A DNA stretch of 64,000 bases from Prosthecobacter sp. (GTDB lineage Bacteria; Verrucomicrobiota; Verrucomicrobiia; Verrucomicrobiales; Verrucomicrobiaceae): the NCBI GenBank assembly GCA_044370285.1, contig JBILVU010000002.1, forward strand, positions 22,785-86,784. The letters are read 5' to 3'. The notes beneath the pieces are model-generated. The model had not been told where the DNA came from. It ran no database searches and saw nothing but the letters and a program-made list of their open reading frames with translations. Each line of letters begins with the position of its first letter. Position 1 is the stretch's first letter. This document shows positions 33,219 through 51,143 of the stretch, piece by piece. Made by a program: the position numbers and the translations under genes.

Positions 33219-36200
33219 ATGCGCCTCGCACTCCTTTCTCTCCTTTTCGTCCCTTTCGTCCTTCACGCCGAACCCGTCAGTCTCTTCGACGGCAAAACGC
33301 TCGACGGCTGGGACTTTGATCCCGCGATGTGGCGTGTGGAAGACGGCGTGATCACCGGCGGCTCCACGACGAAGAAGATCAAAAAGAACGACTTCATCAG
33401 CACGAAGAAGAGTTACCAAAACTTCGAGCTGAAGCTCAAAATCAAAGTCAGCGGCGATCCGAAGACAGGCATGCTGAATAGCGGCATCCAGATCCGCAGC
33501 GTGCGTGAGGGCAGCGCCATGAGCGGCTATCAGGTGGACTGCGGTGCGGGCTGGTTCGGCAAAATCTACGACGAGCACCGCCGCAACAAGATCATCTGGG
33601 CACCCACGCCCGAGCAGCAGGCCGCGCTCGACAAGGCCATCGACGTCTTCGGCTGGAACGAATACCGCATCCGCGCCGAAGGCACGCGCATCCAGACCTG
33701 GATCAACGGCGTTCACTGCATGGACTACACCGAGACCGATCCGAACATCGCCCTCGACGGCCACATCGCCCCGCAGGTGCACAGCGGCGGCGTTTGCCTC
33801 GTGCAGGTCAAAGAGGTCACCATCGAAGAACTGCCCGCCACGCCCGGTGCGCCCACTTGGCAGAGCATCGGCGGCGTCGAAGGCATGAAGGCCAAGCTAC
33901 CGCCGAAGCCGCAGGCCGATGCCGCGAAGCCAAAGCGCGACATCTCCTACAACGACGTCCAAGGCACCTCCAAAACCGCCGAAGAGCAGCAAAAGCTCTT
34001 CCACCTCCCCGAAGGCTACGAAATCGAGCTCGTCGTGCAGGAAAGCGAAGGCCTCGGCAAATTCGTCAGCGTCTATTTCGATCAACGCGGCCGTTTGTGG
34101 ACGCAGACCGCGCTGGAGTATCCCGTCGATTCGAATGAAAACCCCGCCGCCGCCGAAGCGGTGTATGCGGGCAAGGGCAAGGACAAGGTGCTCGTCTATC
34201 CGAGGGAGTCTTTGAACGCGAAGATTCCCGCGGGTGGACTCACGAATCCCACCGTCTTCGCCGACGGCCTTGCGATCCCGCTCGGCATCCTGCCCTGGGG
34301 CGCGGGCGATACCTGCTACGTCCAGCACGGCCACGATTTGAAGCTCTACAAAGACATGAATGGCGATGGCAAGGCGGACACCTTTGATGTCGTCCTCACC
34401 GGCTTCGGCGTGCAGGACTCGCACCTCTTTCCACATCAATTCACGCGGGCACCCGGCGGCTGGATTTGGATGGCGCAGGGCCTCTTCAATAACAGCAAAG
34501 TCCACAAACCCGGCAGCGATGTCGTCGTCGATTGGCCCAAGTGCAGCATGGCCCGCATGCGACCCGATGGCAGCGAGTTCGAAGTCATCAGCACCGGCCC
34601 GAACAACATCTGGGGCCTCGTCATCACCGGCGAAGGCGAGACCTTCATCCAGGAAGCGAACGACTACGGCTACCCCGTCATGCCCTTCCACGAATACGCC
34701 TACTACCCCGGCGGCATGGAGGCATTGAAGAAGAGCTACCAGCCTGATTTCCCACCTCAGGCCGAGTTCCGCATGGGCGGCACGGGTTTGAGCGGCTTGG
34801 CGCTGATCGAAAGTGGTTCGCTCAGAGACAAACAGGCCGCGCACACCATGGCCGTCGCCAATCCCATCACCTCCAAGATCCAAACCATCGCCATGCATCG
34901 CGACGGCGCGTATTGGAAGCTCGCCCAGCTCCCCGACCTCATCACCTGCGACGACCCCTTCTTCCGCCCCGTCGCCCTCACCAACGGCCCCGACGGTTGC
35001 ATCTACATCGTCGATTGGTACAACAAGATCATCTCCCACAACGAGGTCCCGCGTGCCCATCCTGACCGCGACAAGACGCGGGGCCGCATCTGGCGCGTGA
35101 AGCCAAAAGCCGCGAAGACCGAAGTGGCTGATTTCACGAAGCTGGGCACCGAGGAGCTGATCGCATCAATTGGCAAAGAACCTGTCGGCAAAGCGCATCT
35201 CGCATGGCAGGAGCTTCTCGACCGCAAACAGCTCCCGCTGACCCATTTTGCCGCTCAAGAGTATCTCGCCAGCAGTCAATTCGGGCAGATCAGTCAGATC
35301 GGTCGGAGTCTGTCCGATCAAAACATCTCCGTGCTCCTCGCCTTCGCCAAACCCAGCCTTACCAACGGCCCCACCATCGCCTCCTCCCGCGGCAACAAGC
35401 AAATCCCCGTGCGCGAGGCCTATGACCGCGAGTTCGAGCGCTTCCTTGTCCGCATGTTCCTGGAGCGTCATCCAGAACTCGTCGCGAAGTTCCTCGACTC
35501 CGAAGCCGCCGCGAAACTGCCCGTGGAAGCCCGCGTGCTTGCCTCGCTCGCGTTGGAGCCGAAGGCGAGCGCTTCCCGCGTCGCCAAACTGCTCCCACAG
35601 CTCGACCGCGCCCCGAATGACGAGGAACTCCTCCGCCTCGCCCAGTTCCCCGCCGAAGCCGGTGTCGGCGAAGCTCTCCAAGCCCTCCTCACCAACGAAA
35701 AATCCCGCGCCGCCGTCGCCGAGAAGTTGCTCGCGCAGCGCACGAAGCTCGATGCGAAGCAGATCGCGCCGTTGTTGACGGAAACGGCGAAAGGCATGCT
35801 TTCTGGAAGCGCGATTGAACTCAAACCGAAGGCCAATCCCAGTGTGGAAGCTCACAGCTTGGCTTTGAAACTCATCAGCGGCTTTCAACTGACGTCTTTG
35901 GAAGATCAGATCGTTACGGGCATGCAATCGAGCATCGCCGTCAGCAGCGGTGACTTGAGAATTCCGTTTGGAGGCGAGCTGACGAGTGACCCGGCTCGCA
36001 TCGTCGAAGTGTTGCATGCCTTGCGCGATATCCACAGCAGCGCCGCAGATATCTTCGCATCATTGAGCACGATGGGAGCGCCTCAGGTGCGCGATGCCGC
36101 CCTCGAAGCCCTCGCTGCCTCCCGCGCACCGAATGCTGGCACTAAGCTCCTCGCGCTTTATCCTTCACTCCAGCCGGCACAGCGCCGCAGCGCCTTGAAC

Positions 36201-37394
36201 GCGCTTTCCAGCAGCAAAGCCGGAGCCAAGACCATCGTCACCGCCTTGCTCGACAAAACGCTCCCACAGGCCGACCTCGACGGCCCCACCGTCGAGCGAC
36301 TCGCCACCGTGCTCGGCGATGACCCCGCCATCACAAAGCTCCAGCAGCAGCTCGGCGGCATCTTCCGCGAGGTCTTGCTGCTCGACGGCCAGGACACCGC
36401 GTGGGTCGATTCCAAGATCACGCTTGATGGCCCCTTCACCGTCGAGGCCTGGGTGCGGCTCGCGCCCGGCATCGGCAATGAAGACAGCCTCCTCGGTATG
36501 AAGGGCGGCGTGGACATGAATTTCTTCGGCGGCAAATTCCGCGTCTATGCCGGCTCCGAGCTGCACGACGTCTGCGTGGCCACCAAACCCATGACACCCG
36601 ATCTCTGGACCCACCTCGCCGTCACCCGCGATGCCCAAGGCCTCATCCGCATCTACCAAAACGGCGAACTCGACGCCACCGGCAGCAAGCCCGCACCCGC
36701 GAAGTGGGAAAACTGCCAGATCGCCTGGAGCGGCCCCAAAAAAGGCACCGAGGGCGCGATGATGGAGTTTCGGGTTTGGAAGGTGGCGCGGAGCGCTGCG
36801 GAGATTCGGAACGGCTTTGATAGGTCATATAGGCCGGATAAGACCTATACGACCTATCTCAAAGCCGGTGAAAAACTCGGCAAAGGCGCCCGCCTTGCCA
36901 AAACCATCGACACCCCGCCGCTGCTCACGGAAGAAGCCGCGAAGGCCCTCGACACCAAATTCGCCAAATTCACCGCCCTGGCCCCCAAAGGCGATCCCCA
37001 GGCCGGAAAAGCCCTCAGCGCCCTTTGCATGGCCTGCCATCAGATCGGCAGCGCGGGCGGTCAAATCGGCCCCAACATCTCCGGTGCCGGCGCCATGGGC
37101 CTGGAGGCCGTCTTGCGCAACATCCTCACGCCGAACGCCGCCATGGAGCCCGGCTACCGCATCTACCGCGTCGAAATGAAAAACGGCGACCTCATCGACG
37201 CCTTCTTCGTCAGCGAAGACAAAGATGCCGTCGTCATCCGCCAAGCCGGCCTCCCCGACCGCCGCGTCCCCAAAGCCGACATCCGCAGCACCAAATTCAT
37301 CCGCCGCTCCCTCATGCCCGAAGGCCTGCTCGATGCCTTGCAGGACCAGCAAGTCGCCGATCTGCTCGCGTATCTGATGACGCTGAAAGGCTAA
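33219..37394 (+). CDS. secreted multidomain PVC-type haem-binding protein (DUF1080 + dehydrogenase-like propeller + HEAT repeats + LamG + cytochrome c)
   Basis: 1391 aa. Signal peptide, then DUF1080-like module (GKTLDGWDF...WRVEDGVITGG...GIQIRS...NEYRIRAEGTRIQTWINGV). Central domain with CIYIVDWYNKIISHNEVPR, a long helical repeat region, a LamG-like block (WVRLAPGIGNEDSLLG...HLAVTRD), and a C-terminal CMACHQIG haem site. Confidence 0.85.
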   Translation: MRLALLSLLFVPFVLHAEPVSLFDGKTLDGWDFDPAMWRVEDGVITGGSTTKKIKKNDFISTKKSYQNFELKLKIKVSGDPKTGMLNSGIQIRSVREGSAMSGYQVDCGAGWFGKIYDEHRRNKIIWAPTPEQQAALDKAIDVFGWNEYRIRAEGTRIQTWINGVHCMDYTETDPNIALDGHIAPQVHSGGVCLVQVKEVTIEELPATPGAPTWQSIGGVEGMKAKLPPKPQADAAKPKRDISYNDVQGTSKTAEEQQKLFHLPEGYEIELVVQESEGLGKFVSVYFDQRGRLWTQTALEYPVDSNENPAAAEAVYAGKGKDKVLVYPRESLNAKIPAGGLTNPTVFADGLAIPLGILPWGAGDTCYVQHGHDLKLYKDMNGDGKADTFDVVLTGFGVQDSHLFPHQFTRAPGGWIWMAQGLFNNSKVHKPGSDVVVDWPKCSMARMRPDGSEFEVISTGPNNIWGLVITGEGETFIQEANDYGYPVMPFHEYAYYPGGMEALKKSYQPDFPPQAEFRMGGTGLSGLALIESGSLRDKQAAHTMAVANPITSKIQTIAMHRDGAYWKLAQLPDLITCDDPFFRPVALTNGPDGCIYIVDWYNKIISHNEVPRAHPDRDKTRGRIWRVKPKAAKTEVADFTKLGTEELIASIGKEPVGKAHLAWQELLDRKQLPLTHFAAQEYLASSQFGQISQIGRSLSDQNISVLLAFAKPSLTNGPTIASSRGNKQIPVREAYDREFERFLVRMFLERHPELVAKFLDSEAAAKLPVEARVLASLALEPKASASRVAKLLPQLDRAPNDEELLRLAQFPAEAGVGEALQALLTNEKSRAAVAEKLLAQRTKLDAKQIAPLLTETAKGMLSGSAIELKPKANPSVEAHSLALKLISGFQLTSLEDQIVTGMQSSIAVSSGDLRIPFGGELTSDPARIVEVLHALRDIHSSAADIFASLSTMGAPQVRDAALEALAASRAPNAGTKLLALYPSLQPAQRRSALNALSSSKAGAKTIVTALLDKTLPQADLDGPTVERLATVLGDDPAITKLQQQLGGIFREVLLLDGQDTAWVDSKITLDGPFTVEAWVRLAPGIGNEDSLLGMKGGVDMNFFGGKFRVYAGSELHDVCVATKPMTPDLWTHLAVTRDAQGLIRIYQNGELDATGSKPAPAKWENCQIAWSGPKKGTEGAMMEFRVWKVARSAAEIRNGFDRSYRPDKTYTTYLKAGEKLGKGARLAKTIDTPPLLTEEAAKALDTKFAKFTALAPKGDPQAGKALSALCMACHQIGSAGGQIGPNISGAGAMGLEAVLRNILTPNAAMEPGYRIYRVEMKNGDLIDAFFVSEDKDAVVIRQAGLPDRRVPKADIRSTKFIRRSLMPEGLLDALQDQQVADLLAYLMTLKG
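36819..36863. repeat. 9-bp-period tandem repeat (GATAGGTCA-like, 5 copies) embedded in frame in a CDS
   Basis: gataggtca tataggccg gataagacc tatacgacc tatctcaaa, encoding DRS YRP DKT YTT YLK. Same kATMnGnCC periodicity as the intergenic repeat at 5053-5088. Confidence 0.6.
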
Positions 37395-42986: not shown

Positions 42987-43322
42987 TTAAATCTCGCCAA
43001 AGTGCTTCTCACGGACGTCCACGATGGCGTTGAGCATCGTTTCGGCCTCACTGCGGACTTTAGCGTCGAGGCTGCTGGCGCTACGATTGAAGCGGCGATA
43101 GAGGAGCTTCAATTGGGCGCGGATTTCGTCCTTGCTCATCTTCGGCGTGATCTCGCAGAGCTCCTCGGGCGTTTGCACTCTGGCCGGAGCCGGAGGGGCG
43201 GCATTGCCTTTGGCGACTTGGTTGAGCACACCGCCTTTGGGGGCCTCGACGGGCTTTTTGACCTCGGCAGCGGGTTTGTGACCGGTGAGAGACTTCGAGA
43301 GGGATTTGAGGATCTTGAACAT
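42987..43322 (-). CDS. small J-domain-like protein lacking the HPD motif (candidate co-chaperone)
   Basis: 111 aa. Basic/Pro-rich N-terminus, then EITPKMSKDEIRAQLKLLYRRFNRSASSLDAKVRSEAETMLNAIVDV. This resembles J-domain helices II-III with NRS where HPD is expected. Lies 34 nt downstream of the Hsp70 gene. Confidence 0.45.
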   Translation of the reverse strand: MFKILKSLSKSLTGHKPAAEVKKPVEAPKGGVLNQVAKGNAAPPAPARVQTPEELCEITPKMSKDEIRAQLKLLYRRFNRSASSLDAKVRSEAETMLNAIVDVREKHFGEI

Positions 43323-43356: not shown

Positions 43357-44847
43357 TTATTCGATGCGCATCGCTCGCAGATGGGCGCTGCGGCGCTTGA
43401 GTTCCTCGTCGCTCAAAACGCCAGCTCCCTTGTAGCTGACGGCGACTTCCTTGCTGCGGCCGGATTGCTTATCGACGATGAGGGCGCGGACGCGCTGGTT
43501 TTCGTCGTAGCTGAAGGTCACGGCGATCTCGCAGCCCTTCGGACGGCCGGCGGGCACGTCGAGGGTGATGCGGCCGATGACATCGACGTATTTCGCGTCG
43601 GGGTCCTCGCCCTGAGTGATGTCCACCTCGATGATGCGCTCGTTGTCCTCGCTGGTCTGATACACCTGCGTGCGGGAGCAGGGGATCGGCGTGTTTTTCG
43701 GGATGACGATGGAGTTCATGAGCTTCTCCTCCTTCGTCTTGGCGTTGTAAACCATCGCGAGAGTGCCGTAGCTGGCATTGCAGACCTCTTGGATCTTGGC
43801 GGACTTCTTGGCGAAGAGCGCCGCACCGAGGGCCACGCATTCATCGACATTGCCGCAGCTCTTGGGCACCTTGCCGAACATCTTTTCGAGGATGACCTTC
43901 ACCTTTGGAATGCGGGTGGAGCCGCCGACGAGCACGACGTGGTCGATGTCGCTCGTTTTGAGCTTCGCGGAGTCCAAAGCCTGCTCCACGAGGAAGACGG
44001 TGCGGGTGAGCATGTTGCGGATGAGCTTCTCAAAGTGCTCGCGGGAGAGATCAATGCGGGCGATGCCGGAATTCTGATCGTTGGCGACGGTGTCGTTCAC
44101 GCGTTGGAGCTTCGAGAGCATCTTCTTGGCGTCTTCCGTGGCCTGGAGCACACGGCGGCGGTGGCGTTCGTCGGAGAAAAGCTCCGCGCCGGTCTGCTTC
44201 TTGTATTGCTCCGCGTAGGCATCGAGGAGGATGTCGTCAAAATTGCTGCCGCCGAGGTGGCGGGCACCTTCGGAGGTGAGGATCTTGATGTTGTCGCCCT
44301 CGACTTCGAGGATCGTGGTGTCCAGCGTGCCGCCGCCCAGGTCATAGACGAGGATGCGGCCCTTCACGCCCTGCGAGTGAGCGTAATACACGGCAGCGGC
44401 GGTCGGTTCGTTCACGAGGCGCTTCACCTTCATGCCGGCCATTTCAGCGGCGGCGATGGTGCTCTTGCGGGCGAGTTCGTTGAAGTTAGCTGGCACGGTG
44501 ATGACCACATCGGTGATGTCTCCGCAGATTTTGGAGCAGTCACGCTTCAGCTTGGAAAGGATGAGCGCGGAAATCTCGGCGGGCGTCCATTTCTTACCGT
44601 CGATCTCCACGAGATGCTCGGGATCGTCCATGTGGCGCTTGATCTGGAAGATCGTGCGGTCCGGCTCACCGCCATCGCGTGCGGCGCTGCCCACGAGCTT
44701 CACATCCTCATGCGAATCGAAAAAGACGACGGAGGGCGTGAGGCGCTCGCCATCGGAATTCGGGACGATTTCCGGATTGCCGTCCGGTTTCAGGTAGGCC
44801 AGGCCCGAGAGGGTCGTGCCGAGGTCGATGCCAACGTATTCAGCCAT
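43357..44847 (-). CDS. Hsp70-family ATPase lacking the C-terminal helical lid
   Basis: 496 aa. GIDLGTTLSGLAY, DLGGGTLDTTILEV, VVLVGGSTRIPKV, then a beta-sandwich-like substrate domain (IPKNTPIPCSRTQVYQT...IEVDITQGE...VTFSYDENQRVRALIVD). Ends where DnaK would begin its lid. Confidence 0.9.
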   Translation of the reverse strand: MAEYVGIDLGTTLSGLAYLKPDGNPEIVPNSDGERLTPSVVFFDSHEDVKLVGSAARDGGEPDRTIFQIKRHMDDPEHLVEIDGKKWTPAEISALILSKLKRDCSKICGDITDVVITVPANFNELARKSTIAAAEMAGMKVKRLVNEPTAAAVYYAHSQGVKGRILVYDLGGGTLDTTILEVEGDNIKILTSEGARHLGGSNFDDILLDAYAEQYKKQTGAELFSDERHRRRVLQATEDAKKMLSKLQRVNDTVANDQNSGIARIDLSREHFEKLIRNMLTRTVFLVEQALDSAKLKTSDIDHVVLVGGSTRIPKVKVILEKMFGKVPKSCGNVDECVALGAALFAKKSAKIQEVCNASYGTLAMVYNAKTKEEKLMNSIVIPKNTPIPCSRTQVYQTSEDNERIIEVDITQGEDPDAKYVDVIGRITLDVPAGRPKGCEIAVTFSYDENQRVRALIVDKQSGRSKEVAVSYKGAGVLSDEELKRRSAHLRAMRIE

Positions 44848-44897: not shown

Positions 44898-47800
44898 CTA
44901 TTGGCTGGAGGTGCGGACTTCGACCTTCCGCAGGATTACCTCGTGTCCTTCGCTGCGCGAGTAGATAAAGCCGGTGCGGCAGCTTTCGACGACGCGGGGT
45001 TTGGCCTTGCCGGGCGTGCTGTCCACCACGGCGATGCGCTTACGCAGCTCGACATCGACCTCGGTGCCGCTGGGCACGTCAAACTCGGTGACGCCGTGCT
45101 GGAGGAGGATGTCCTCGAAGCTCTGCCGCAGCGTGTGGAGCTGGGTGACGATGTCATTGCCGCCGTTCACACCAGAGTAGCGTTCCTTCAGCGCGTCGAT
45201 GAGGTCGATGCGTTTGATCAAATCGTTGGCGAACATCACCACGGTCGATTCGTCCGTGCCGAGGCCTCGACGGAGGATTTCGTGCTTCTCTTCCAGCTCG
45301 CCGAGCTGGCCGCGGAGGCGTTTTTCGATCTCCTGCCAGTGTTTGAGCTGCGCCTCGGCCTGAGCCATCTCGCTGCGCTTCTCGTCGAGGCGCACAAGCT
45401 CGGCCTTCGTCTGCTCAATCTGGGTGACGATGCGGGCTTCGGCGGCGGCGTGATCGTTGATGCGCTTTTCCAGTTCGGCGATGCGCTTCTTCTGCTCCAC
45501 CTCGTAGTTTTGAAGCGTGGAGGCCTGCTTCTGGATGTCGCTGCTGAACTGCTTGAACTCCGCCTCGGCGGCCTCGCGGTCCTTGCGGGCCTGCTCGGCG
45601 CGAGTGGTCTCGCGGTTGAGGGTTTCCTGAGCGGCATTGACCTTCACCTGGATGGCGAGGTCTTCTTCCGAAGCCTTGCGAATGGCCTTCGTGATCTCGT
45701 TCTGGCGTGATTCGAGGTTCGAAATGGCCTCGCCAAGGCCGAGCATCTTGCCACCGACGTGGATGAACTCACTGAGACGCGTCTGATGGCTGTCGATCTT
45801 GCCTTGCAGCTCCTTGAGCATGCTGTCCGCGCCTTGCAGATCGAGCTTCTGATTATCGACGATCTTGGTGAGGCGCTCCTCGTCGGCCTTGAGGTTCTGC
45901 ACGCGATCAAGGCGGGTACGAAGCTCGTCGTCGATCGTGGCGGCTTCCTTCTTCGTGGCGGAAACTTTCGCCCGCAGGTCCTTCAATTCCTTGTCGGTAT
46001 CCGCGAGGGCGGCTTCGGCAGCGCGGGTCTGCTCCTGGGCGGCTTTGAGCTTGAGGCCTTCCTTGTCCACATCCTCCTGTGCTTTCATCACCCGCTGCTG
46101 GCGGAGTTGGTGGGCCTCTTCGAGCTGCTCGATCTGCTGCTGCAATTCGGCGAGCTTCTTGTTTTGCGTATCCGTGGTGACGTTGAGGCGCGTGACGAAC
46201 TGCGAGGCCTCGTCACGCTGCTTTGTGAAGGTGGAAAGAGCGGCTTGGATGCCGGCCAGTTCGGTGGTGAGCGTGGGAATCTGCTTCCGCAAAGCCTTCT
46301 CCTCGGCGCGGGCGTTTTCGAGGCTGGCATCGGCTTCGTTGCGGGCCTTTTCGGCGGCCTGCTGAGCGGCGAGAGCCTTCTGAAGACGGGCCTCGGTATC
46401 GGTGGCCTTGGTTTCGGTGGCTTTGAGCGTTTTGTTGAGGTCGGCGAGCTTGCTGGTCTCGGCTTTGAGGTCGGATTCGAGAGCCGCAAGGTCGAGGCGC
46501 AGCTTGTCCTGCTGCTTGCCGAGTGTGGCGACGTTCTTTTCCTCGGCGGCGCGGGTCTTTTCGGTGTCCTTGAGGTTTGTCGTGGCGGCGGCGAGGCGTT
46601 CGTTGATGTCTTCGAGTTCCTTGAGTCGCGATTCGCCCGTGGCGACGCGTTCCTGAATGCCTTTGAGGCGTGTCTCGGCCGCGTTGGCCTCGGAGAGCTT
46701 GGCTTTGACTTCCGCATCCAAGGTGGAGCGTTTTTCGCCGAGAAGCTTCTCGAGGTTCGTGGACTCGATGCGCAGCGCTTCGGTGGCCGTTTCGGCTTCC
46801 TGGCGTTGTTTGACGGCCAATTGCATCGCATCGAGCGCGGCCGTTTTGTCCTTCGTGAGAGCGGCGAGCTCGTCGGCGAGGTTTTGGGCCTGCGCACGCG
46901 TTTGCTCGACCTTGCCGCGAAGATCCGGCAGGAGCGCTTCGAGATCCGTGCGCTCTTTGGTGAGGCGCTGGGCTTCGGAGGCGATCTTGTCGCGGTTTTG
47001 CGTGGCGGCGGTGATGGCGGCGGAAAGCTCGGCGTGCTGCTTGCTGGCCTGATTGAGTTCCTTGAGGCGGTCTTCGAGCCCGGCGGTCTGATTCGTCAGC
47101 TCGGCCACGCGTTTCTCCGCGGCGACGATTTCCTTCTGCTTCGCGGCGAGGCTGTCCTGGAGGTTTTGATGATCGGACTGGGCGGCGGCAATGCTCTGCT
47201 GCGTGGTGGCGTGCGTGCTGGTGAGCGTGGCGATGACGGCCTCCAAGCCGCTGATCTTCTCCGCGAGCGTGAGATGATGCTGCGAATTCTTTTCCAGCGA
47301 GGCGACGGACGCGGCCAGCTCCTTCGTTTTCGTGGCGAGCGAGGCGGTGAGTTCTTCCAGTTCGCTTTTGGTGCTGGCGACTTGAGTGGCGAGCTTCTTG
47401 TCCTCGGCCTGAGTCGTCTTGAAGTGTGCTTCCGCTGTGGCGGCCAGTTCCTGGACGTTTTGGAGACGCTGCTCGGCGGTGGCGATTTGCGACTGGCGGT
47501 CGCTGAGATCGGTCTCGGCTTGTTTGATGTCCTCGCGGAGCTTGCCGAGATCGTGCGAGAGATTCGTCTGCTGATCCTCAATGGTGCGGACTTCTTTTTC
47601 GACGGCCTCGCGACGCGTGGTGAGTGTCTGGATGAGCAAATGCTGCGCCCGGCCATGCTCGGTGGCGGCGAGAAGCTCGCGGGTGCGCTCGTCGCGATCT
47701 TTGACCAGCGCGGCGACGGCGGCGACGACTTCCGCTTTGTGCGATTCGACGGCTTTGAGTGCCTCGTTGCTGTCTTTGAGGCGTGAATCGGTGTCCGAGA

Positions 47801-50800
47801 GATCGGAGAGCTTGTTTTCGAGGTCGGCAGCCTTGTCTTCGAGGGCTTTGACCTGCGCGGCGAGATCGTTCGAGCGAGTGGTGCGCAGTTCGATTTGGAG
47901 ATCGAGTTCGTCGCGTTCCTTGGTGGCGGCTTTTTGCTGCTCGGTGGCTTTGGCCTGGGCTTCGGCGGTCTGCTTTTGAAGCTCCGCCAGCTTGGCTTCG
48001 GCGGCTTTTTGCTTCGCGTCAAAATCGGCCTGTGCAGCATCGCGTTCCTTGCAGATGCGCTCGAACTCGCCCTTCGCAGCCTGCTGCTTCGCGTTGAAGT
48101 CATCGACCTCGGCGCGGAGCGTGGTGAGGCGCTGCTCGGAGCCGCTCACGTCTTTTTGATGCGTCGTCTGCGTGGCGAGAAGGGCGGCGATGGCCGTTTC
48201 AAGCACGCCACGCTGATCCTGCATCTGGCCGAGCTGCTTGGTGACCTCGACGAGCTTCGTCTCGTTGCCACGAAGCGCCTCGACGCGGGCTTTGAGCGCC
48301 GTTTCCTCGCCGCTGGTCTGGGCGAGGCGCTGCTGCGTGTCGAGAAGCTGCTCCTGCGCTTTTTGGAACGCCGCGTTTTTGGCTTCGAGGTCGTCGGTGA
48401 GCTTGGCGAGGTCTTTGTCGAGCTTTTGAAGCTCGGCGCCGCGTTTGGATTTCAGTTCGGCTTCGGATTTTTCGGCCTCGGCCTTGAGCTTGGTGAGTTC
48501 GGCGACTCGTGTTTCACTCGCGGCGATGTCTTTGGTGAGCGCGGAGAGTTTTTGCTCGGCGGACGAGGCGTCCGCGCTCTTTTGCGCCAGCGTGGTTTCG
48601 AGGGCTTTGAGGTCGCCGGAGAGCTTGTCGAGCTTGGTTTGGGCGGACGAGGCGTCCGCGCTCCTCGTGGTGATTTGCTCGGCGAGTTTCGCGGCCTCGG
48701 TCTGTTTCGCGGCGAGGTCTTTTTTGATGGCGTCTAGCTCGGCGGTGCTCTTTGAGAGGTCTCGGAGGCGTGTTTCGCCGGTAGCGATGTCGGCGGTGAG
48801 TTTGGCGAGCTTTTGCTCGGCGGACGAGGCTTCCGTGCTCCTTTGCGCCAGCGTGGATTCGAGGGCTTTGAGGTCGGAGGTGAGCTTGTCGAGCTTCGTT
48901 TGGGCGGACGAGGCGTCCGCGCTCCGGCTGGTGATTTGCTCGGCGAGTTTCGCGGCCTCGGTTTTCTTGGCGGCGACATCTTTGTCGAGGGCTTGAAGCT
49001 CGGCGCTGAGTTTCGTGCGTTGCTCGCCTTCGGATTTTTCGGCTTCGTTGCGGCGCTGGACGAGTTCTTTGATGCGGGCCTCGGCGACGCTGATCTCGGC
49101 GGTGAGCTTGCTGAGCTTTTCCTCGGCGGAAGTGAGCGCGGGCAGCTTGGCTTCGAGGGTTTGGGTTTGCTCGGTGAGCTGCTTGAGCCTTGCCTCGGTG
49201 GCGGTGGCGCTTTCGCTGAGCTTGGCAAATTCGGCCTGCTTGGCGGTGAGGCTGGCTTCGAGGCCTTGGAACTCGACGGCGCGTTTTTCGCCTGCGGCGA
49301 TGTCGGCGACGAGTTTGGAGAGATTGCGGCTCGCGGCGGCAGCCTCGGCCATGTTCGACGACAAGGTCGATTCGATGGCCTTTGCCTGATCGGTGAGCAG
49401 GGCGTGCTTTTTCTCGGTGGCGGTGAAGTCGGCGGTGAGCTTGTCGAGTTCGGCCTGCTTGGCGATGAGAGTCGCTTCGAGGGCTTTGAGTTCGCTGCCG
49501 CGCTTGGATTGAAGCTCGGCCTCAGATTTTTCGGCGTCGGCTTTGCGGGTGGTCAGCTCGGTGAGACGGGACTCGGCGCTGGAGATGTCGGCGGTGAGCT
49601 TCGAGAGCTTGGTTTCAGCGGACGAGGCGTCCGCGGTCCTCTGCGCCAGTGAGGATTCGAGAGATTGGAGCTTCGCGGTGAGGTCGTTGAGCTTCGTTTC
49701 GGCGGACGAGGCGTCCGCGCTCCGGGTGGCGAGCGTGGCTTCGAGAGCTTGGAGTTCGCTGCTGCGCTTGGATTTGAGTTCGGACTCGGACTTCTCGGCG
49801 TCGGCTTGGAGCTTCGTCAGCTCCGCGATGCGTGACTCGCTGGTGGCGATGTCTTTTTGAAGCGCAGCGAGCTTTTGCTCGGCAGCGGTGAGTTCGGGGA
49901 GCCGGGCTTCGAGGGCTTTCGACTGCGCGGTGAGCTGCTGGAGCTTCGTTTCAGCGGACGAGGCGTCCGCGCTCCGGGCGGTGAAAAGGGCGACGAGGGT
50001 GGCGAGTTCGGCCTGCTTCGAGGTGAGCGTCGATTCGAGGCCTTGCAGCTCGCTGCTGCGCTTGGATTTGAGTTCGGACTCGGATTTTTCGGCATCGCCT
50101 TTGAGCCTCGTGAGCTCGGCGAGGCGAGCCTCTGTGGTGGCGATGTCTTTTTGAAGGGCGGCGAGCTTTTGCTCGGCGCTGGCGGTATCGGTGGCTCGCT
50201 TGGCCTCGGCGGCGGAATGGATGCTTTCGAGGGCTTTTTGCGCGGTGGCGAGGTCGGCCTCGGCTTTGGTGACGAGGGTGCGGGTGGAATCGAGCTTGCT
50301 CTCGATGTTGCCGAGATCGCGGCGCTTCTGGTCAAACTTGGCGGCTTCGGCTTTGGCGTTTTCCACCTCGGCGCGGGCGTTTTGGACCTGCTGGCGGAGC
50401 GTTTCGGACTCGGACTTAAAGCCGGTGAGGCTGGTCTGGGTCTCGGTGAGTTCTTTTTTGCGGACTTCGAGCGTGGCTTCGAGGCTGCGGAGTTCATCGC
50501 GGCGACGCTGTTCGACCTCCGCCTCGATTTTCAGCGCGTCGCGCTGCTGGCGAAGCTTTTCGATTTCGTCGCGGAGATCGGCGGCTTGTTTCGCGGCGGC
50601 GGGGTCGGGCTTCGGGATGAGCGAGGGCGGCGGCGCGGCGGGAGACTTCTGCGAATCGCCGGTGGAGGAGGCCATGCGATGCACGACCGGCTTCGTCGGC
50701 TCGACCTTGCCGGTGTCTGGCGAAGGCGGTGACGTGTCGTCTTTGTCACGGGCGGGAATGCCCTCGGTATCGCCGCGGCGGCCGTCGATGCGCGGCGGCT

Positions 50801-51143
50801 CATTTTTGGTGGCGACGGCTTTGGAGGCGCCGACGGGGGCGAGGCCCTTCGGTGCTCGCTCGCGAAAGCGGCTTTCCAATTGGCCGAACATGATGCGATC
50901 CCCGCCTTTCACGCGGGCCTTCTCGATGCGCTTGCCGTTGACGAAGGTGCCGTTGGAGGATTTCAGATCGACCAGCTCGTAAACGCCGTCCGGCTGCTTC
51001 AGGAACTCGGCGTGGAAGCCGGAGATGAAGGTGTTGTCGATGACGATGTCGTTTTTCGCGTCACGACCGATGGAAAGACGGTCTTCGAGCACATCGAAGA
51101 CGAATTCGTTACCATCGTTGAGATTGAAGGCCAGGTACGGCAT
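44898..51143 (-). CDS. giant FHA-domain / coiled-coil / GrpE-like fusion protein
   Basis: 2081-aa uninterrupted ORF. N-terminal FHA, a P/S/T-rich linker, about 1850 aa of A/E/K/L/Q/T-rich heptad-like sequence with internal repeats, and a C-terminal 115 aa resembling GrpE. Confidence 0.85.
   Translation of the reverse strand: [2081 protein letters not shown]
44901..45245 (-). other. GrpE-like nucleotide-exchange domain (C-terminus of the giant protein)
   Basis: By-eye match to E. coli GrpE recalled from memory: [17 protein letters not shown] vs [45 protein letters not shown] vs [49 protein letters not shown] vs [18 protein letters not shown]. Confidence 0.6.
48290..50215 (-). repeat. in-frame tandem duplications of 84-87-codon coiled-coil modules
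   Basis: A 22-nt core GGCGGACGAGGCGTCCGCGCTC (plus strand) recurs at 48558, 48642, 48819, 48903, 49617, 49701 and 49953, some copies with 1-2 mismatches. Offsets of exactly 261 bp occur twice and 252 bp once, with long near-identical flanks. Confidence 0.85.
50859..51143 (-). other. FHA (phosphothreonine-binding) domain at the N-terminus of the giant protein
   Basis: [64 protein letters not shown] carries the canonical G-R...S..H...NGT..N FHA signature. Confidence 0.85.

Follow-up and report, generated by a model that had tools for sequence, protein, structure and literature searches.

A giant FHA protein with a predicted coiled-coil rod and a C-terminal GrpE-type domain, encoded beside a lidless Hsp70 in Verrucomicrobiaceae

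GrpE is usually regarded as a small, invariant housekeeping co-chaperone, which dimerises via its parallel long N-terminal helices. What, then, does a GrpE-like domain do at the end of a protein of 2081 amino acids (aa)? This question is raised by a locus of Prosthecobacter sp. lying within a 64,000-nucleotide stretch of contig JBILVU010000002.1 (assembly GCA_044370285.1, positions 22,785 to 86,784; hereafter the window). An earlier sequence-only reading had noticed that the final 115 aa of a giant open reading frame (ORF)—aa 1967-2081, coded by 44901-45245 on the minus strand—resemble a GrpE domain. Our analysis confirmed that the C-terminus of this giant protein really is a GrpE-type domain; it lies behind an N-terminal FHA domain and a long rod, and its gene stands next to that of an unusual Hsp70. 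We favour, with moderate confidence, the reading that the giant protein is a GrpE-type co-chaperone of modular build, shaped as a rod and serving a dedicated Hsp70, which would tether the Hsp70 machine to partners marked by phosphothreonine.

On the level of sequence profiles, the HMMER search proposed by the sequence-only reading gave a significant result. Pfam GrpE (PF01025), whose gathering cut-off is 25.8 bits, scores the final 115 aa with 29.1 bits (E 9.4e-7), the last 200 aa with 37.9 bits (E 1.8e-9), and the whole protein with 30.6 bits. Of the 165 profile positions, 12-152 align with aa 1918-2062 (11-152 in the search with the last 200 aa), so that the homology to GrpE begins upstream of the start first given and takes in the last part of the paired helix. 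This match extends to the wider family, as 22 of 31 divergent members individually match the Pfam profile at E <=0.01. For a direct comparison, the E. coli K-12 grpE sequence (L085) was retrieved—the E. coli strings given in the sequence-only reading turned out to be exact—and aligned by hhalign with profiles of the family. Among these profiles, A1 comprises the 18 closest relatives and A3 comprises 31 sequences across divergent subfamilies. E values of 8.3e-5 (A2) and 6.7e-5 (A3, residues 85-193) were obtained, and the three segment pairings that had been drawn by eye were reproduced, with all quoted strings present in the ORF. The hhalign alignment stops short of the long paired helix, a stretch that the Pfam hidden Markov model (HMM) alone aligns. 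The A3 HMM scores E. coli GrpE with 22.1 bits, the top of 2000 shuffled sequences reaching 10.6 bits. Among the sequences of the PDB, the A3 profile finds GrpE of Geobacillus (4ani_A, E 0.0068, residues 94-212, with 'LRKaeV' opposite 'LRPAMV') and of Thermus (3a6m, E 0.049). NCBIfam returned coiled-coil matches alone for the C-terminus.

The fold leads to the same assignment. The AlphaFold2 model of the last 150 aa (predicted local distance difference test score, pLDDT, 89.9; predicted template modelling score 0.69) contains helices at aa 1933-1960, 1965-1989, and 1995-2015 and strands within aa 2018-2079. A long helix, a brief 'GLGT' break, two further helices, and a six-stranded β-domain thus follow each other in the order of the GrpE elements. 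When this model is searched against the PDB with Foldseek, the top nine matches are all GrpE or GrpEL1 chains with 144-162 aligned columns, among them 9bls_C (E 1.9e-5), 1dkg_A (E 1.2e-4), 4ani_A, and 8gb3_E. The Foldseek probability is 0.98-1.00 for the first eight of these, and no match other than GrpE falls under E 0.29. Identity to the solved GrpE structures amounts to 16-20%. Within the β-domain, 'G[YF]…[IL][LI]RKAEV' aligns with 'GY…VLRPAMV' of 4ani and 'GY…TIRAAMV' of E. coli, with a 5-residue insertion. With a profile score above the curated threshold and a GrpE-like fold, the GrpE interpretation is hence supported on both grounds.

At the opposite end of the giant protein, Pfam FHA (PF00498) matches with 71 bits (E 1.1e-19, cut-off 20.7), which identifies an FHA domain. 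The earlier account of the locus was incomplete in this respect, as it contained neither this domain nor the small third gene described below. The same region also matches Yop-YscD_cpl in Pfam (E 3.2e-10). The pairs G26-R27 and N64-G65 and the motif S41-x-x-H44 are present, which we take, by established FHA knowledge, to be the phosphothreonine-binding motifs. The linker that follows holds, at aa 98-181, 17 of the 26 prolines of the protein. The rod bears only four prolines in ~1750 residues, shows an A/L/E/K/T/Q-rich composition, and reaches a hydrophobic occupancy of heptad a/d positions of 0.66-0.77, as compared with 0.47-0.56 in the termini. Between aa ~320 and ~900, internal repeats of 87-98 aa are found, and 8-mers recur. 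The sequence-only reading had described the paired N-terminal helix of GrpE as replaced by a very long coiled coil, which fits this anatomy. Its estimate of about 1850 aa has to be lowered to ~1750 aa, because the first ~180 aa are taken up by the FHA domain and the Pro-rich linker. Calculated with 0.1485 nm per residue and assuming a continuous two-stranded coiled coil, the rod would measure ~260 nm—and ~90-305 nm across the orthologues. A Gly-rich break in the rod, 'VGGKMLGLGE' (45728-45757, minus strand; aa 1796-1805), lies ~130 residues ahead of the GrpE module; the distant fragment P0064 has a similar one, 'HVGGQILSFGAALA', and the break may be a conserved hinge.

In Pfam and NCBIfam, the rod weakly matches SMC, Rad50, and the crescentin rod—matches of the coiled-coil type that all stay far under the cut-offs. 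An SMC/Rad50 identity, as implied by the label 'chromosome segregation ATPase', was rejected: the match is confined to coiled-coil segments and reaches 162 bits, the cut-off being 567, and the ends are FHA and GrpE. SMC and Rad50 possess a Walker A/B ATPase head and a hinge, whereas the giant protein has neither. More generally, crescentin, the arms of SMC/Rad50, and cyanobacterial HmpF likewise bear a very long, Pro-poor, heptad-rich rod and differ from the giant protein in the FHA and GrpE domains at its ends. Full-length members are listed in databases as 'FHA domain-containing protein', 'chromosome segregation ATPase', or 'golgin subfamily B member 1', the latter two of which are corrected by the assignment made here. 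In automated annotation, short fragments of the C-terminus receive the label 'GrpE', which was seen on no full-length member. Gene calls on independent metagenome contigs include the identical 2081-aa gene.

Next to the giant gene, the sequence-only reading had placed the nucleotide-binding domain (NBD) of an Hsp70. This neighbour is real and conserved at its position; it is, however, a complete Hsp70 comprising the NBD and the β-part of the substrate-binding domain (SBD) instead of an NBD alone. Pfam HSP70 covers it with E 1.3e-104 (profile positions 2-509 of 599), and judged by this match of about 1e-104 it belongs to the Hsp70 superfamily; its closest PDB sequence is DnaK of Geobacillus (2v7y). 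Alignment with E. coli DnaK shows D8, K70, E171, D194, T199, and D201 to be invariant. As the catalytic residues are kept, this partner Hsp70 should cycle nucleotide. In the same alignment, the SBD-β is retained and the α-helical lid is absent. The interdomain linker, VLLLDVTPLSLG in DnaK, is changed to 'EVCNxSYGTLA', which is conserved across three subfamilies. With 370 bits against a cut-off of 648 for the NCBIfam DnaK equivalog, the protein remains under every DnaK and HscA cut-off. The replaced linker, the absent lid, and the low NCBIfam scores led us to reject an assignment as DnaK, HscA, or HscC. Relative to E. coli DnaK, a ~23-residue segment in subdomain IB of the NBD is also missing, and the protein ends in a conserved 'LRAMRIE'-type tail.

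Are these two genes a peculiarity of one genome? The sequence-only reading had suggested looking for other long proteins that end in a GrpE domain, and a widespread, length-variable family was found instead of a single outlier. In a scan using one genome per GTDB species, at least 107 genomes matched, of which 80 were kept. All are Verrucomicrobiaceae—Prosthecobacter, Brevifollis, and metagenome-assembled genomes (MAGs)—with JADJPM010000001.1 as the closest (99%). About 60 loci contain a complete ORF, whose product of 937-2388 aa always carries the N-terminal FHA domain and the C-terminal GrpE module; compared with the ~200 aa of canonical GrpE, the roughly tenfold size noted earlier holds. 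In ~70 of 79 informative Verrucomicrobiaceae loci (~89%), the Hsp70, 84-100% identical, lies immediately downstream, with the small ORF behind it. Two distant subfamilies, represented by L086 and L091, possess this set of three genes as well, which brings the total to three subfamilies. Since cultured species carry the small downstream gene as well, they probably have the operon too. In addition, the genomes of the family presumably encode canonical grpE and dnaK.

Two further arrangements were seen. In a small clade (L061, L063, L064, and L068), ORFs of 345, 338, and 335 aa lie downstream instead and no Hsp70 is found within 6.5 kb, so that the giant gene and the Hsp70 gene can be unlinked. 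In OW818661.1 (L034:10450-16568), an insert of ~6 kb with opposite-strand genes for proteins of 1306 and 357 aa separates the two. Three MAGs labelled 'Akkermansia muciniphila' (L006, L037, and L055) carry the locus, with 79-97% identity in the 150-aa C-terminal region; this label is probably a taxonomic mislabel.

Across 41 orthologues, in which the giant protein varies from 1410 to 2388 aa, sequence identity is highest in the FHA domain (0.87), followed by the last ~130 aa (0.75-0.83); it falls to ~0.5 in the linker and 0.3-0.6 in the rod, and is lowest in the repeat zone (~0.30). That the FHA domain and the GrpE module are the best conserved parts and the rod is variable suggests functional constraint on the two ends. 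The conserved C-terminal block starts within the basic terminal part of the paired helix (…EKRLRGQLGELEEKHEILRRGL…). In GrpE of Mycobacterium tuberculosis (Mtb), the corresponding basic helix region contacts NBD-IA and the SBD of DnaK and is essential (PMC10803776).

A profile search of 1.84 billion representative proteins widened the family to 194 proteins at E <=1e-3. Matches range from 255 to 1924 aa and form several clearly distinct subfamilies, and nearly all complete long ones place the FHA domain at the N-terminus and the GrpE-like domain at the extreme C-terminus. A further group of ~185 aa bears the same divergent GrpE-like domain after an N-terminal hydrophobic helix, has neither the FHA domain nor the rod, and is not accompanied by an adjacent Hsp70. 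This helix is probably transmembrane, and the group would be a membrane-anchored version of the GrpE-like module (P0114, P0117, P0118, P0145, P0151, P0170, P0174, and P0186; L089:5001-5555). Every family member with an organism name—few of the distant ones are named—comes from Verrucomicrobiae or Verrucomicrobiales. The protein-collection search yielded only C-terminal fragments of <=263 aa and no full-length giants, and the exact 2081-aa sequence is absent from that collection; long repetitive genes seem to be under-represented or fragmented in assemblies.

How could these parts work together? As canonical GrpE dimerises by parallel helices, a parallel coiled-coil extension is structurally natural, and the upstream coiled coil of the giant protein is compatible with a parallel dimer. 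Two giant chains would hence pair in parallel, like the long N-terminal helices of canonical GrpE, and this pairing would run on as a two-stranded coiled coil over ~1750 residues. At one end of the rod, the four-helix bundle and the β-wings of the GrpE module would dock onto the NBD of the lidless Hsp70 and promote ADP release. At the opposite end, two FHA heads on flexible Pro-rich linkers would bind phosphothreonine-marked partners. The rod might thereby link the cycle of a specialised Hsp70 to sites bearing Ser/Thr phosphorylation or set its spacing relative to them. The product of the third gene might act as an HPD-less J-like regulator or as an anchor of the partner Hsp70.

A number of observations weigh against this co-chaperone reading. 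The hhalign probabilities in the comparison with GrpE reach only 61-64%, and neither phmmer with the last 200 aa nor the close-family profile A1, which returned coiled-coil noise alone, recovers GrpE among the PDB sequences. The module has also diverged from canonical GrpE, which we count as evidence on this side: the last β-hairpin is 5 residues longer, and the canonical 'FDPxxHxA' is replaced by 'vDxxlRxRI' in the family, with the Asp retained in this protein. In canonical complexes, the lid of Hsp70 touches the β-wing of GrpE and its linker touches the long helix (PMC11685456); as the partner Hsp70 bears no lid and an altered linker, its interaction with GrpE cannot be fully canonical. About 10% of the Verrucomicrobiaceae loci and the P0095 subfamily have no adjacent Hsp70. 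The large ORFs scanned in the window include neither a Ser/Thr kinase nor a PP2C phosphatase. Furthermore, the continuity and the parallel register of the rod are predictions from sequence, and Hsp70 binding and exchange are predicted from domain identities and gene linkage.

An alternative is that the module is a true GrpE homologue but no longer an exchange factor. It would then serve for dimerisation and docking only and would anchor an actin-fold ATPase, be it the Hsp70 or another, to a structural coiled-coil protein, the Hsp70 acting as cargo or adaptor. The diverged motifs and the longer hairpin fit this possibility, as do the family members without an adjacent Hsp70 and the partner itself, in which the loss of the lid and of the canonical linker has probably altered classical allostery. 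Yet all examined catalytic residues of the Hsp70 are intact, and the module is strongly conserved, including the basic helix end that contacts NBD and SBD in canonical complexes. Moreover, in every solved complex the nucleotide cleft is opened by the GrpE dimer bound to the NBD (PMC10803776, PMC11685456), so that binding without an effect on exchange would be unusual. We regard loss of exchange activity as unlikely.

Slightly more doubtful still is the view of the giant protein as a cytoskeletal or scaffold filament, similar to crescentin or other intermediate-filament-like proteins. In this case, the GrpE module, the Hsp70, and the small protein would form a built-in machine for assembly and disassembly, and the FHA domain would regulate polymerisation via phosphorylation. 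A rod of ~1750 aa with weak matches to the crescentin rod, SMC, and Rad50 agrees with this, and so do the location of the gene in the core chromosome, a rod length that differs between species—as expected of a structural element—and the confinement of the family to Verrucomicrobiae including Prosthecobacter, whose cells are often prosthecate. On the other hand, the coiled-coil matches lie far under their cut-offs and reflect composition alone, there is no indication of lateral or head-to-tail assembly, and globular heads at both ends of a two-stranded rod suit a tether equally well. The filament is also compatible with the tethering co-chaperone that we favour. A convergent or chance resemblance to GrpE in an FHA coiled-coil protein unrelated to chaperones, which would account for the misses of phmmer and profile A1 and for the low identity to solved structures, is effectively excluded by the above-cut-off Pfam score of the query and the matches of its relatives, by the two solved GrpE proteins found with the broad A3 profile, by hhalign and its shuffle control, by a structural search led full length by GrpE alone, and by the Hsp70 gene adjacent in ~70 loci and three subfamilies.

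Compared with canonical GrpE (PF01025; E. coli 1DKG, Geobacillus 4ANI, Mtb 8GB3) and with GrpEL1/Mge1, the C-terminus of the giant protein keeps the same order of elements, shows significant profile and fold matches, and is likewise encoded beside an Hsp70; its 'G[YF]…LRKAEV' lines up opposite the canonical 'GY…LRPAxV'. It differs in the paired helix, which is extended by ~1750 aa of coiled coil and makes the protein ~10 times longer (937-2388 instead of ~200 aa), in an FHA domain where canonical GrpE has a short disordered tail, and in the hairpin and 'FDPxxH' changes given above. Whereas the partner of canonical GrpE is DnaK, the putative partner here is a lidless, linker-altered Hsp70 paralogue. 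Exchange factors of modular build that guide Hsp70 to specific places are regarded as a eukaryotic trait, exemplified by the BAG proteins. BAG1, BAG3, and BAG6 might be seen as alike in concept, as an exchange-factor domain is fused to a targeting domain; Bag1, for example, is reported to link Hsp70 to the proteasome (PMC12922752). The three-helix BAG domain has an unrelated fold, though, and the family is eukaryotic and without a long rod. Closer in gene content are the GAP1-N2 GTPase conflict systems of actinobacteria and firmicutes, which contain pairs of HSP70 and GrpE (eLife 2020, PMC7159879). Here too, a second, specialised Hsp70 comes with its own GrpE, the Hsp70 sometimes lacks the peptide-binding domain, and J-domain fusions occur (PMC7159879). 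Those systems are nevertheless centred on a GTPase and FNIII repeats and use GrpE of ordinary size, with no FHA–coiled-coil–GrpE fusion described (PMC7159879). The present locus, unlike them, encodes no GTPase and shows no PADLOC defence signature beyond coiled-coil matches.

We found no description of an FHA–coiled-coil–GrpE architecture in the literature. Although the domain family is known, this architecture, together with its atypical Hsp70 and a possible J-like partner, appears to be undescribed. Going one step further, Verrucomicrobiae might own a spatially organised Hsp70 machine: a parallel rod of about a quarter of a micrometre, a GrpE end exchanging on a lidless Hsp70, an HPD-less J-like helper, and an FHA end reading Ser/Thr phosphorylation. 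We offer this complete picture tentatively, as a genuine possibility that is less secure than the co-chaperone role itself. If it is true, bacteria, too, build targeted Hsp70 machines, and the 'targeting' exchange factors of eukaryotes would have their first counterpart in bacteria. Hsp70 action could then be linked to Ser/Thr phosphorylation signalling, the length-variable rod could serve as a molecular ruler or tether in cell architecture, and a natural test case for the regulation of a lidless, linker-altered Hsp70 would be at hand. In any case, the FHA–rod–GrpE family is widespread within one bacterial class and provides the cell biology of Prosthecobacter and its relatives with a candidate long structural element. 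The features of the locus are collected in Table 1.

Table 1. Features of the giant-gene locus, in positions of the window
Feature	Position	Strand	Basis
Giant gene, 2081 aa: FHA domain, linker, coiled-coil rod, GrpE module	44898..51143	(-)	ORF list, translation
FHA domain, aa 1-95 (Pfam match aa 24-87)	50859..51143	(-)	Pfam
Pro/Ser/Asp-rich linker, probably disordered, aa 96-181	50601..50858	(-)	Proline distribution
Predicted coiled-coil rod, aa ~182-1935	45339..50600	(-)	Composition, heptads, weak coiled-coil matches
DNA tandem repeat, period 84, 1.9 copies, within the repeat zone of the rod	49605..49759	(-)	Tandem Repeats Finder, score 215
GrpE module, aa 1936-2081: basic paired-helix end, two four-helix-bundle helices, β-wing	44901..45338	(-)	Pfam, AlphaFold2, Foldseek
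Partner Hsp70, 496 aa, lidless, begins 50 nucleotides downstream of the giant gene	43357..44847	(-)	Pfam HSP70
Third gene, 111 aa: disordered N-terminal half, conserved C-terminal helical domain	42987..43322	(-)	Conservation, AlphaFold2
Divergently transcribed gene, 258 aa	51302..52078	(+)	No Pfam match

The third gene, downstream of the Hsp70 gene, is conserved in three subfamilies, and the C-terminal 60 residues of its product are strongly conserved. AlphaFold2 predicts for aa 50-108, with pLDDT >90, a short helix and a helical hairpin. In Foldseek, the top eight matches of this model are all J-domains, if weakly so (E 0.56-1.5, probability up to 0.89), and the best-fitting ones superimpose with a root-mean-square deviation of 2.2-2.7 Å over ~51-58 residues. 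Its lone match among PDB sequences is a weak one to a phycobilisome linker. Assignment as a J-domain (PF00226) was rejected: Pfam gives no match, the HPD motif is absent—'NRS' stands at the end of helix II—and hhalign against the J-domain of E. coli DnaJ is insignificant (E 0.23, probability 0.3%). The product may hence be J-like on the basis of its model, which we treat as a lead and not as a finding. Its N-terminus 'MFKILKSLSKSL' is invariant and looks amphipathic, and the middle of the protein is disordered; it could be a membrane-tethered J-like regulator.

Upstream of the giant gene, the divergently transcribed gene has a counterpart at the same position next to the giant gene of one distant subfamily (L091:4075-4935, 53% identity, E 1e-88). 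No counterpart occupies that position in L086 and L088, and this gene may be a loosely linked fourth member. The neighbours of the locus are housekeeping genes, namely lpxK, fdhD, tgt, rpoB/rpoC, and a gyrA/parC-like topoisomerase subunit A gene. PADLOC found no specific defence match: the giant protein gave only coiled-coil matches to LmuB and JetC, and the Hsp70 none. Together with the core-gene context, this argues that the locus is no mobile defence island. Elsewhere in the window, 33219-37394 (plus strand) encodes a 1391-aa protein with 3-keto-disaccharide hydrolase, DUF7133, Laminin_G_3, and cytochrome c domains. A similar DUF7133 protein adjoins the gene for the putatively membrane-anchored GrpE-like protein in L089, and this type of architecture seems to be common in these loci.

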